From assembly GCA_030265395.1 (NCBI GenBank), contig JARFYF010000029.1, positions 30,406,309 to 30,470,308 on the forward strand: 64,000 bases of DNA, in the 5' to 3' direction. Of this stretch, positions 6,588 through 39,705 are shown one piece after another. Under the pieces are notes generated by a model, which did not search any database, had not been told where the DNA came from, and saw only the letters and a program-made list of their open reading frames with translations. This DNA is from Rhina ancylostomus (Eukaryota). The position numbers were made by a program, and so were the translations under genes. Position 1 is the stretch's first letter; the number at the start of each line of letters is the position of its first letter.

Positions 6588-7104
6588 TTTAAAATACTTG
6601 TGCTACTACTCTGGTGATATTATTTAACTTTGATATTTTAATAAATTCCAAATGGTTAAATGGGTTGTATTTGTTTTTTTTAATTGGGAAAAAATACCCA
6701 AAACTGATCATGGAAGTTCTGGAGACAGTTTCTGCTGCAAATATTTTTGATAATAAAGAAATATGGAAATTAGATTAATCCTTTCCCAAGCTTGACATTT
6801 CTTGACTTTCATGATTTTGATTCCTTTAGAAGATGCCAAAGATACATTCTGAGTTTGCTGGAAGAAATTAACAAATTGACCCCTGTTCTTTTTTGTGTTG
6901 AACCAGTCACAGTCACTTCACTATTTCTGAACTGTTTTACAAACTTTTCCAAAACCTTTCAATAAATTGTTTGGACATTTTGCATTCTGAAATATTGTAT
7001 CTTTTGAGACACACCACTGAAAAACTGTAAAATTAAACCTGATAATCTAAACTGAACAAAATACATCAGCAAAGTTCAGGTGTTCTTTAATAAGAGGCAA
7101 ATAC

Positions 7105-7258
7105 ATTTTTAAGACACTTTTGAATAATTAAAGGCTAATATTCCAGTCAATGTGCCAACATAACATTGTTTCCATGTCATTAATGACATAGAAACAAAGT
7201 TATGTTGGCACATTGACTGGAATATTAGCCTTTAATTTTTCAAAAGAGTCTGAAAAAT
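7105..7258. repeat. 154-bp near-perfect palindrome (77-bp arms, no spacer)
   Basis: Centre atgtcatt|aatgacat between 7181 and 7182. Arms pair with 5 mismatches, counted by hand. Confidence 0.97.
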
Positions 7259-8528
7259 TTCTTCACATTTCTGTGTCTTTAACTCTAATATGGAATAAAT
7301 TTAGGGATTATTAATCCTGGTCAGTTCTTACAATTCACAGTCTGTGTAAGAACATATCTAGTTAAATAAACTATACTTATAAAAAGCTCATGCTATGAGC
7401 TGCAAGTCATTAGTTCAGTTTTGGGACATTGATTTAGATTAGATAAAGATTAGGTTCTTGGAGACCCATGGCAGCACAAAACATTCCAAAATATAATCTG
7501 TCACACAAAATTACACCATTTTAGAGAGGAACAATATGCAATGGGATAGAATTTCTTGTTCAGACATAAACCAGAATTGGGCAGCATTGTATTGCACTTA
7601 GCTAAGGGTGGGCTAATTCCACCAGAACTTAGGAAGTCAGTTATAATACCCTCTGTGAGTTCTAGACCTGAATAACATCTGTTATTGAGAGTTCATTGTT
7701 GTGTGGGTTAGAAATCCTGTGCCACTGCACAAGTTAAAGACCTACATCAATTTAAAGAATATATGTTCTGCTAGTGAAATGTCATTATGAAATGTCATTT
7801 TGGAGGGTTTTGAGCAAGTAAAGGATGACTAGAAGAAACTTTAAGTCCCATAATGTCTTGTTTTACAGATGAAACTGCAGATACTTAATGGTTCAAGTGA
7901 GACCAAGGTGGGGCCCTTTTCGGGAAAAAGATAAAGTGCATTTAGTGGATGAGAGGAGGCGGCAATGAGCATGAATATACCATGCAGCATTTAATGGACC
8001 CAAGAACTAATGGTGCAGTTTTTTTTACCTTATCTGATTTAACTATCACTACTTTATACAAAGCCAATGTACCATGTGGCAAAGAATTTTCTCCCTTTTA
8101 CACTTTCTTAAAGTTAATAGGATATTAACCATCATTATGGAACAGGGTGAGCTTTAAACTGACAATTTATGTCTGTAAATGTTAATTCAGTGATGTGTTT
8201 AAGTATGTTATCCCAATACAAATGCTTCCATCTAATGTCATCACAGAATGCATATAAATGCACTCATAAACACACAGATGGTTTTCAATGCATGTATCCC
8301 TAAAGACGTGAACATTTCACCTCTATCTGCATGAAAAGACTGAACACAACTAAAGGAAGAAAACTTTACAAACTCTTACAAGCAATTAAGCTAATAGACC
8401 AACTGACTAATGTCAGCTCGACATTCAGGAACATTATGCTTAGATCAGGATTACGTTCTCTCTTCATGATCTTCTTTCTTATCCTGTTCACTCACCTATT
8501 GACTGACTCCAAAGCATGCTATGAAATA

Positions 8529-8753
8529 TAGGAAGTCCCTGGGTTATGAACGAGTTCCATTTTTGAGACTGTAAGCTGGTTTTGTAGGTAACTTGGAACA
8601 TTGTCCGCGCATGCACACTTGGCCCGGGGATCGCGGACGTGCACGCTCATTTGGCTGGGGGATCATGGCCGCGCATGGCCCCAGCCGCACATGCGCACTT
8701 GGCCATGAAGGTCGGTTAGTAAATACAGGCGTTCGTAAGTCAGGGACTTCCTG
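8529..8753. mobile_element. Tc1/mariner (Tigger/pogo-like) MITE, 225 bp
   Basis: 24-bp TIRs: taggaagtccctgggttatgaacg and cgttcgtaagtcagggacttcctg. Flanked by TA at 8527-8528 and 8754-8755. GC/CpG-rich interior. Confidence 0.85.
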
Positions 8754-8919
8754 TAAAATACCACGTTCTTCGTGTAGTTGTAGGGTTCACATTGAGTCAG
8801 CATTCTAATTTGTGTTCCTTTTTGCTTTAAGTCAGAGTCCCGCAGCAATCAAACAAGCATCTCATACTAAACACCAGGATTTACCAACATATCACAGTCA
8901 AAAAATATCTGATTGTGCA

Positions 8920-9696: not shown

Positions 9697-10104
9697 AAAT
9701 TTTTTCTAAATTTTATTTACTTTTTTTTATTTACAGCATGGTAACAGGCCCTTCTGGCCCAACGAGTCCGCGCCACCCATTTTAAACCCCAAATTNNNNN
9801 NNNNNNNNNNNNNNNNNNNNNNNNNNNNNNNNNNNNNNNNNNNNNNNNNNNNNNNNNNNNNNNNNNNNNNNNNNNNNNNNNNNNNNNNNNNNNNNCGGCC
9901 CAACGAGTCCGCGCCACCCATTTTAAACCCCAAATTAACCTACCCGTACGTCTTTGGAATGTGGGAGGAAACCAGGGCACCCGGAGGAAACCCACGCAGA
10001 CACGTGAGAACGTACAAACTCCTTACAGGCAGTAGCGGGAATTGAACCCGGGTTGCTGGCGCTGTAATAGCGTCGTGCTAACCACTACTCTACCGTGCCG
10101 CCCC
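9697..10104 (-). mobile_element. Young tRNA-derived SINE (V-SINE/HE1-like)
   Basis: Minus strand: ggggcggcacggtagagtagtgg (A box), ggttcaattcc (B box), gtgggtttcctccgggtgccctggtttcctcccaca (V-domain-like), CR1-type tail gaagggcctgttaccatgctgta plus A-rich tail. CpG-rich. Confidence 0.92.
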
Positions 10105-19899: not shown

Positions 19900-20070
19900 A
19901 AATAAAATCAGAGAATTCTGGAAATATTCAGCAGGTCAGGCAGCATCCGTAGAAAGGGAAACATTTAATATCTTAGGTTCTAATGTATTCATTCAACATG
20001 TTAAATCTCTTTCCCTCTCCACCGATGCTGCCTAACCTGCTGAGTATTTCCAGCATTTTGTATATCTCGA
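19900..20070. repeat. Penelope-derived inverted repeat (fold-back)
   Basis: 19918-19947 and 20024-20053 are reverse complements with 2 mismatches in 30 nt, extending inward about 14 nt. Confidence 0.85.
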
Positions 20071-20545: not shown

Positions 20546-20566
20546 ACCAAGCCAGAGTTCTCATAG
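20546..20566 (+). CDS. WIF1: WIF1 exon 1, visible 3' end only ((H)QARVLI-G)
   Basis: ac caa gcc aga gtt ctc ata g|gtgagc matches WIF1 HQARVLIG with a phase-1 donor. ATG and signal peptide lie in the preceding N-gap. Confidence 0.93.
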   Translation, partial: TKPEFS

Positions 20567-21500
20567 GTGAGCAGCACCCTGACCAGGTCCTCCCGTGCAG
20601 GGCTTCAGAGGTATTTCCCCCCATTGGAAGAGAGGGCGTTCTAAGGGTTATTGGAAGAATTTGATGTATTTTCATTGTTTCCCCCTCCTCCCAAAACAAA
20701 ACTCCACCAGCTCTGTGTTTGGCAGCGTTTGTTGTCGGTGCGGCCAGTCCCAGCAAGCAGGTCAGTCAGCGTCTGAGGATGGGACATGTAACTCCACTAA
20801 ACTGTTGAGGATCAAATGAATGTGAAGTGTGGTTTTACAGCCCAAAGTCTCTCCGGCGCTTCTCCTGGAGCTCTCTTTCGCTGACTGTTTCCTTCCCTTC
20901 GCCGATTCGTGTGCACCATAGTGTTTATACCATCTCTCCCTGTTAATAAAACCCACCAACCTCCATCAAGCTTATTTGAATATGTAGCCATCGACTAGAA
21001 CGTTTAAATTAATGCATGTGATATCTGGGAACGTTTACTAAGCAAACTGAATGAGATTTATGCACCCTTATAGCATGAGACTGGAGGAAGTAATGGTCTA
21101 ATAACGTAGAATCAAACATATCTTGTGGCCGTAGAGAATTTGTTACTCGATTACTAAAACAACAGCAATGTTGAAGTTTGAGAGATCTATTGAACTGACG
21201 TATAAGTTTCATGATTTGGTGTTCATATGACTTTTTTTTGGGGGGGGAAGAACTCGCCAAATTGAGGCCACGGTTCTTAATCATCCTGAAATGACCACCT
21301 TTCAGGTTTTGAAGAGGATATTCTTATCGTTTCCGACGGTAAAATGGCTCCGTTCACTCACGATTTCAGGAAAGCACAACAGAGAATGCCAGCGATTCCA
21401 GTCAACATCCAGGCCATCAATTTCACCTGGCAGGCTACGGGACAGGTAAGGATCCGAGCCAACGTGATTTCGCAACAGATGTTCAATTAAATGTTTCATT
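20567..21500. promoter_or_regulatory. CpG-enriched intron 1/exon 2 region, probable edge of the WIF1 promoter CpG island
   Basis: Visibly more CpG (ggcagcgtttgttgtcggtgcggcc, ctccggcgct, ttcgccgattcg) than the CpG-poor background. The adjacent gap is consistent with GC-rich dropout. Confidence 0.55.
21306..21445 (+). CDS. WIF1: WIF1 exon 2 (140 nt): [46 protein letters not shown]
   Basis: ttcag|gttttgaa...ggacag|gtaagg. Near-identical to the vertebrate WIF domain; NFT sequon retained. Confidence 0.99.
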
Positions 21501-38763: not shown

Positions 38764-39554
38764 GTAAGTATCTTGCTCTTTATTATAAATAAAGGCCCAT
38801 TATTGGTTTGAGTTTTATTTTGTAGAAATAATTCTCTAAAGGAAATTAATGAAATGTTTAGTTGTGATGATCTTCCCAGTACCTGGCTAATTTTAGCATC
38901 AAAGCTAAATTTGACTTTCTGAGCATGTTATTTTTTTAAATTCTCCAATTGTTTCAGCATGATTAAACCATACTTGATTTTAGAGTACATTAGTATCTAA
39001 AAATTGCCTCATGGTCGTTGAGATTAAGATCAATGATTCTTTGACATCAGAAGTGAACCTAACATTGATTTCATTCAGTACTGAATTGTGAAATGCGTTG
39101 TGCTTCCAGCACATTCTGGGGCTGCAATTGGAGGAATGAATCAGCAGAATTGAAGCCAGTGGAAAAGAAAACTGAGTACAGTATAAAAGGGAATGCTTTC
39201 TTGATATTATATGTTTTTCTGATGAAAACCACTTTCACCCTCTTCAGCTAGTTTGATATTTAAGTGAATAAATAAATGGTGTTAGCTGAACAAAGTGACT
39301 TTGTCCCATATTTTTAGATTTTCACCTGCCTCACTTGGGAGGAAAGTCGGTTAAGCAGTTCCCTATTCTTTTCTCAAACCAGCCTGAGTTACATTGCATT
39401 CCAGTTACTCTGGGCTTGGGAGGAACTGGGGAATTGTGCTTGGCCACGACATTTCCAGGGTAACATGCTATGAGCTATTGTCTGGGTAGGAAGGGGACCA
39501 GGGATTCTGAAGGGTTTGCTGGAATTGTGAAACAATATCCTGTGATGAGCAATT

Positions 39555-39705
39555 AAAGCAGAAAATGCTGGAAACACTCAGCAGACCCGTCATCAGATCT
39601 GAAGCATTCACTCTATTTCTCCTTCTGCAGATGCTGCCTGATCTGCTGAGTGTTTTCAGCATTTTCTGTTTTTATCTCCAGTTTCCAGCATCTGTTGTGC
39701 TTTTG
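39555..39705. repeat. Penelope-derived inverted repeat in intron 8
   Basis: 39555-39585 and 39642-39672 are reverse complements with 2 mismatches in 31 nt. Confidence 0.85.

Follow-up and report, generated by a model that had tools for sequence, protein, structure and literature searches.

Template switching is a described source of DNA hairpins. Over 6,000 template-switch hairpins have been reported in primates, with switches of up to 83 bases, and a switch need not start from any earlier similarity at the locus (Monttinen, Frilander and Loytynoja 2023, PMC10710096). In yeast promoters, template switching expands inverted repeats and can alter the expression of neighboring genes (PMC13100816). 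According to figures cited in a review, the human genome contains about 180,000 spacer-less palindromes longer than 40 bp and 718 longer than 200 bp; the review adds that the risk grows with the length and similarity of the arms and as the spacer shortens (PMC7999016). Here, we characterize a spacer-less palindrome of 154 bp at 7105-7258 of a 64,000-nucleotide stretch of Rhina ancylostomus DNA (the window, meaning the whole stretch analyzed). Our preferred reading, which we put forward tentatively and at close to even chances, is that this palindrome is real, single-copy, and old, that it arose through one fold-back (template-switch) event, and that it has been kept in mildly constrained cis-regulatory DNA.

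Structure of the palindrome and contigs across its center

The left arm (7105-7181, + strand) and the right arm (7182-7258, - strand) are 77 bp each, abut without a spacer, and pair at 72 of 77 positions. The arm length and the five mismatches given in a preliminary description of the locus (7111/7252, 7116/7247, 7125/7238, 7165/7198, and 7173/7190) were exact. Between the mismatches lie a perfect stem segment of 39 bp (7126-7164, with its mirror at 7199-7237) and a perfect center of 16 bp (7174-7189). Outward extension to 7100/7263 is weak, with pairing at 3 of 5 extra positions, and local gapped alignment of the flanks revealed no further symmetry. The sequence is complex, with a G+C count of 44/154 (71% A+T) and no CpG. 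The palindrome scores 57, compared to best scores of 9 to 16 across 20 shuffled windows, and is the sole structure of its kind in the window with a score of at least 12; no second copy occurs within the window, in agreement with the earlier statement that it resembles no other repeat there.

The perfect center bears mirrored matches to TALE-type and homeodomain-type motifs, and the palindrome also holds SOX-like matches at 7164 and 7193 and NFI half-site matches at 7153 and 7206, all scored against what we take to be the consensus of each motif. These mirrored matches are putative and are expected in any AT-rich DNA, but they are compatible with an enhancer reading.

Folding of the palindrome as RNA, a check that the preliminary description had suggested, gave a very stable hairpin with a 77-bp stem and a 4-nt loop (-96.2 and -101.5 kcal/mol for the two strands; z = -18.35; equally stable shuffles, 0/200). 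We considered that the locus could be transcribed, as an enhancer RNA or lncRNA, into a long RNA hairpin that would be cut into small RNAs. This stability would favor such a product, and template-switch hairpins have yielded miRNAs according to the primate report, although the same source gives a preferred stem of about 35 bp and a loop of at least 10 nt, compared to 77 bp and 4 nt here (PMC10710096). The palindrome thus has the stable hairpin of a canonical miRNA without its stem and loop proportions. It also lacks a match to a known family, given that none of the 16 Rfam matches at E<=5 between 5500 and 9000 reached its gathering score (for example, 59.5 versus 99); none of the 16 was a ribozyme family, and we discarded the miRNA matches among them as generic hairpin scores below threshold. 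No flanking gene crosses the site. Taken with the comparisons between organisms described below, a processed RNA hairpin seems quite improbable to us as the main explanation.

Contigs assembled from other sequencing runs were used to follow the palindrome in real DNA. Part of the stretch is contained in 12 runs, none of them recorded as RNA, of which 8 were examined (X1, X2, X3, X5, X7, X9, X10, and X11) and 4 were left out (X4, X6, X8, and X12). Contigs of 5 of the 8 runs bridge the center with at least 31 letters per side, and they come from three organisms (A, C, and D) and three studies. The X1 contig (organism A, 7135-7228) is identical to the window and may derive from the source sample. 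Contigs of X9 and X10 (organism D) bridge the center at 7128-7235, as do those of X5 (6705-8528) and X7 (7085-7465), which represent one sample of organism C. In X9, a 32-nt contig at 7126-7157 has a depth of 26 compared to 12 to 14 for its neighbors, as both arms are collapsed in it. X2 (organism B) has contigs at 6834-7131 and 7186-7700 and none over 7132-7185, and X3 has no contig over the palindrome, but such holes prove nothing. X11, which we guess to be RNA, gave scattered 151-nt contigs, none of them over the palindrome, and is uninformative.

An artefact of assembly or library fold-back might be suspected in a short-read scaffold with many gaps, and the gap in X2 and the lack of a contig over the element in X3 would fit it. 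However, the five runs that bridge the center span three organisms and three studies and carry species-specific changes, which excludes an assembly chimera or a library fold-back and leaves an artefact with practically no chance. Spanning sequence was a check that the preliminary description had named, and its view that the palindrome is no simple read-foldback artefact is thereby upheld.

Copy number and origin

A DNA search of the 2.2-Gb genome with the left arm returned two matches, which are the two arms themselves; the arm is single-copy except for its own mirror, and this answers, for this genome, the copy-number question raised in the preliminary description. Pattern searches gave the same picture. 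A 23-mer with up to 2 mismatches had 1 other genomic site, which did not extend. The 14-bp core had 21 sites compared to 23 for its reversed control, and among the 15 core loci retrieved, all 14 others pair at 4 to 12 of the next 33 positions versus 31 in the palindrome. A 25-mer with up to 3 mismatches had 7 other sites, none of them symmetric, versus 1 for the control, where composition predicts 2.2 and 0.4 sites, respectively. This excess arises partly from composition and partly from two members of one abundant old repeat. We judge the approximately 20 nt common to the arm and this repeat to be a chance resemblance, given that a profile built from 24 copies of the repeat scores the two members at 216 and 227 bits and the palindrome region at -1.8. 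The repeat itself (L146:1480-1700 and L147) has 626 candidates, with about 70 to 75% identity between copies. No further copy of the palindrome was found in 1.37 Mb of background sequence, and metagenome contigs gave 0 matches. These searches have a reach of about 30% divergence, beyond which copies would escape them.

Within this sensitivity, a dispersed family is rejected, as no second site is symmetric, and no low-copy family of the Eulor/UCON type was found at several loci within about 30% divergence; some Eulor families are hairpin-shaped. None of 10 boundary choices is flanked by a direct repeat longer than 2 nt, and none by TA, in keeping with the earlier remark that there is no obvious target-site duplication, though age could have erased one. 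The fold-back transposon proposed at that time does not agree with a single copy lacking a target-site duplication. As in a Made1-type MITE, terminal inverted repeats make up most of the element; dispersed copies within about 30% divergence and a target-site duplication are absent, and an orthologous empty site was not seen in A, C, or D, the three organisms that cover the center.

It could still be argued that the palindrome is the last recognizable copy of an extinct palindromic nonautonomous DNA transposon that was exapted in the manner of Eulor/UCON elements. Its size and layout resemble those of Made1-type MITEs (PMC1784062), ancient repeats are described as concentrated in conserved regions, with their other copies lost over time (PMC3500645, PMC5753468), and copies diverged by more than about 30% lie outside the reach of our genome searches. 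Nevertheless, neither the DNA search nor the three pattern searches nor the background yielded a second copy, no target-site duplication is visible, the repeat that shares approximately 20 nt with the arm is separated from it by more than 200 bits, and an arm identity of 94% is high if every other member of the family has been lost. We consider an exapted transposon improbable.

To place the palindrome among the hairpins of this genome, we sampled a background of 160 stretches (1,367,686 non-N bases) from four chromosome-scale contigs plus C29, the contig of the window. Hairpins of equal arm length occurred once in 1.37 Mb, or 0.73 per Mb (95% range, 0.02 to 4.1). This hairpin (L080:4904-5066; G000:C84:89004904-89005066) has 77-bp arms, a 9-nt spacer, and 6 mismatches, and it is likewise single-copy, which suggests that events of this kind recur in this genome. 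No complex spacer-less palindrome of such size was present in the background (upper limit, 2.7 per Mb). The palindrome is uncommon, yet of a recurring kind. Two shorter complex hairpins were also noted, one with 43-bp arms and 2 mismatches (L097:5619-5708) and one with perfect 25-bp arms (L203:6144-6203), neither with a copy among the 160 background stretches.

A template-switch origin fits the palindrome because the sequence is unique, there is no spacer and no target-site duplication, and there is a single copy. At this one locus, a unique sequence stands next to its own inverted copy, and the 77 bp fall within the reported length of template switches. In the first step of the proposed mechanism, a short central palindrome would have let a nascent strand fold back and serve as its own template for 77 nt, so that one arm was replaced or added. 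We infer this origin, fold-back copying of 77 nt during replication, as likely; A, C, and D are all two-armed, and no preduplication orthologue was found among them.

Age and conservation in the LEMD3-WIF1 interval

The preliminary description placed the palindrome about 13 kb upstream of WIF1, and this label holds. A frame at 21290-21490 (+ strand) contains a WIF1 exon (Pfam WIF, E = 1.6e-8), and 20546-20566 (+ strand), followed by a GT donor at 20567, is the visible end of what we take to be WIF1 exon 1, with the remainder beneath an N block. The distance from the palindrome to this likely exon-1 end is about 13.3 kb. On the other side, a LEM-domain frame on the - strand (L008:3554-4561) puts the start of LEMD3 approximately 32.5 kb to the left. 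LEMD3 was placed via this domain, as a Pfam MSC search for it gave no match and its controls likewise gave none. The palindrome is therefore intergenic, between the divergent LEMD3 and WIF1, and neither gene covers the site. The Pfam scan took 17 of 152 long frames (200 kb upstream and around the window start), which leaves room for small exons of other genes. Wif1 and Lemd3 are also locus-mates in mouse and human, where many tooth and craniofacial enhancers are predicted (PMC10078798).

The window and its surroundings hold other repeats and assembly features. Retroelement debris with reverse-transcriptase fragments (Pfam RVT_1, below cut-off) lies at 534-1022 and 1917-2327, and an exact 40-nt duplicate (9756-9795 and 9897-9936) flanking a 100-N gap is likely due to two overlapping contigs that the assembly left unmerged. 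Close head-to-head pairs of one abundant short repeat occur at 19914-20057, at 39552-39675, and at L008:9308-9384; such pairs form weaker hairpins, were seen again in several background loci, and are frequent in the genome. A MITE-like insertion at 8527-8757, which ends in inverted repeats and is bordered by TA, has many copies in the examined runs, and its ends are presumably Pogo/Tigger-like. The insertion is missing from the contigs of C and D (228 and 267 nt skipped), where the orthologous site is empty, and is therefore specific to one lineage.

Organism D differs from the window at 36/506 positions in the left flank and 51/828 in the far right flank (together 87/1334). Within the palindrome, it differs at only 2 of 119 positions seen (7158 and 7257; the list from X9 is complete), where about 8 differences would be expected from the far flanks (p = 0.017), and it carries a 14-nt deletion in one arm (7163-7176; 14 gaps in X9 and X10), the contigs reading the same whichever arm sustained the loss. 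The far flanks of organism C differ at 73/1014 positions. Over 7085-7465, C has 14 differences, of which 9 were placed (1 in the palindrome) and 5 were not, giving 1 to 6 differences per 154 positions in the palindrome; we put the number at no fewer than 2, because the contigs run unbroken and this needs a change in the perfect segment. A and C retain the full palindrome length, with 0 gaps in X7 over 7085-7465.

The palindrome forms the left edge of a low-divergence noncoding stretch of approximately 0.8 kb (7081-7900), which differs by about 3% compared to 6 to 8% in the flanks and whose limits were drawn after seeing the data (D, 15/561; C, 24/799 over 7085-7901). In D, the palindrome (2/119) is not more conserved than the right part of this stretch at 7259-7700 (13/442; p = 0.35). 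When one rate was assumed throughout, scan-corrected p values for the stretch were 0.009 (D) and 0.001 (C); with rates allowed to vary among 100-bp blocks, they were 0.06 to 0.30 (D) and 0.02 to 0.13 (C). Moreover, C and D are close to one comparison rather than two, because most differences from the window are common to both. Organism B shows no contrast (left flank, 4/298; right part, 8/515) and is not usable as support, given that 3 of its 12 differences are unplaced and may fall in the palindrome. We rejected CpG decay as the cause of the divergence contrast, since the left flank is equally free of CpG and of like G+C. The palindrome has thus taken fewer substitutions than the far flanks, a contrast that amounts to about one independent comparison and is weaker under rate variation.

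Several lines of evidence bear on age. Organism D keeps the window letters at 7190, 7198, 7238, 7247, and 7252, and the double-depth contig of X9 begins exactly at 7126, so the 7125/7238 mismatch is common to D. These shared letters suggest that the arm mismatches mostly predate the split of the organisms. No two-sided (compensatory) changes were seen in D, and ongoing arm-to-arm conversion is unsupported, as the five mismatches are old and the changes in D are one-sided only. The preliminary description offered a recent inverted duplication among its explanations; a local inverted duplication remains the best origin, but it was not recent, since relatives with flanks diverged by 6 to 8% keep the palindrome. 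Mutation in the epaulette shark runs at 7e-10 per generation, one of the lowest rates on record (PMC10587355). At this rate, which belongs to another species, has a wide interval, and serves as a rough sign of age only, a divergence of 6.5 to 7.5% would correspond to about 5e7 generations per lineage. The same description called long palindromes usually unstable, and our comparisons cut both ways, as D has lost 14 nt near the center and the element is full-length in A and C. Deletion near the center is the expected route by which palindromes lose symmetry. Collectively, these comparisons give moderate support to an old palindrome in probably constrained noncoding DNA near WIF1.

Under our preferred reading, the five arm mismatches would have accumulated before A, C, and D separated, later repair of one arm from the other having left no trace, and purifying selection on the DNA letters of the 0.8-kb stretch would then have slowed change. 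We give slightly better than even chances to this selection, with the stretch as a likely enhancer of WIF1 or LEMD3. Enhancer-type selection is the simplest reading because conservation reaches beyond the hairpin and comes without compensation. The mirror copy would double any binding sites, and the 14-nt loss in D would remove one copy of the doubled inner sites; one arm may therefore lose 14 nt without loss of sites. The palindrome probably owes its symmetry to the way it arose and not to selection for the symmetry as such. Counting against constraint, the palindrome is no more conserved than the right part of the stretch, and D tolerates a deletion inside it.

These same comparisons weigh on the RNA hairpin. 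In its favor, the change at 7158 in D would leave a G-U pair in place on the + strand, and a loop of about 24 nt would result from the deletion. However, D has no compensatory change, the change at 7257 breaks a pair, the G-U-type asymmetry between strands is 1 versus 1, and conservation reaches far past the hairpin.

A neutral relic of the same fold-back origin, lying in a region of locally low mutation rate in a slow-evolving genome, with the deletion in D as the usual decay at the center, is possible but on the unlikely side. At about 0.7 equal hairpins per Mb, chance placement of one near a gene is expected; the drop in significance under rate heterogeneity, the absence of contrast in B, the deletion in D, and the low shark mutation rate (PMC10587355) all agree with neutrality. 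On the other hand, the palindrome was chosen before the comparison was made, and D still shows 2 differences versus about 8 expected, while the flanks on either side, which lie within 1 kb and have a similar composition, differ by 6 to 8%.

Inside the low-divergence stretch, the segment at 7428-7563 (+ strand) has a 71%-identical paralogue approximately 161 kb downstream on the same contig (L143:1501-1630; G000:C29:30574726-30574855), aligned over 137 columns in the same orientation. This paralogue is without a palindrome arm, and a third copy of the element was not found. The pair is possibly an old, locally duplicated regulatory element that stands on both sides of WIF1.

Implications and comparison with known systems

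As it stands, the locus is one old, probably constrained palindrome with a putative function only. A bolder proposal is that one fold-back doubled transcription factor sites and thereby produced a spacer-less 154-bp palindrome that works as a WIF1 enhancer (or hairpin RNA) in sharks and rays. Selection would have kept both arms along with their mismatches for tens of millions of generations despite cruciform instability, and such single-copy hairpins, which may number hundreds to thousands in the genome, would be an overlooked source of regulatory elements. We regard this proposal as doubtful. If true, the locus would offer a clean test of a distal vertebrate element that was born by template switching and then selected beside a Wnt antagonist used in the development of teeth, skeleton, and appendages, as one arm, both arms, and the symmetry could each be removed separately, and organism D provides a natural deletion of the center.

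In the titles and the opening parts of the abstracts of the papers surveyed, the palindrome is undescribed, and supplementary tables of shark miRNAs, open chromatin, or conserved elements could contain it. PATRRs, as reviewed, share the near-perfect palindrome and the cruciform potential, but they are several hundred bp long and more than 90% A+T, whereas this palindrome has 154 bp of complex sequence with 71% A+T and has been stable enough for several species to share it (PMC7999016). Like Made1/hsa-mir-548, it is a short near-perfect palindrome that would fold as one hairpin; Made1, in contrast, is described with 37-bp arms, a 6-bp spacer, 7,850 annotated copies, and a mariner parent, while the palindrome is single-copy, spacer-less, and without a target-site duplication (PMC1784062). 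As with Eulor/UCON repeats, a short noncoding element lies in conserved DNA near a developmental gene, although those repeats are reported as multilocus families across bony vertebrates and no family was found for the palindrome (PMC5753468, PMC3500645). The yeast promoter repeats have tested effects in yeast, whereas here a distal vertebrate site with 77-bp arms is known from its letters (PMC13100816).

The palindrome resembles the template-switch hairpins of primates as a near-perfect inverted repeat at a single locus in unique sequence, with 77 bp inside the range of up to 83 bases (PMC10710096). A hairpin-less parent sequence was not found for the palindrome. It also differs in being intergenic rather than intronic, in a stem that exceeds their criterion of 30 to 55 bases, and in being old and apparently constrained (PMC10710096). 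Single-locus fold-back palindromes were thus already known, and what this locus adds, with moderate support, is old age and a setting in constrained noncoding DNA near WIF1.
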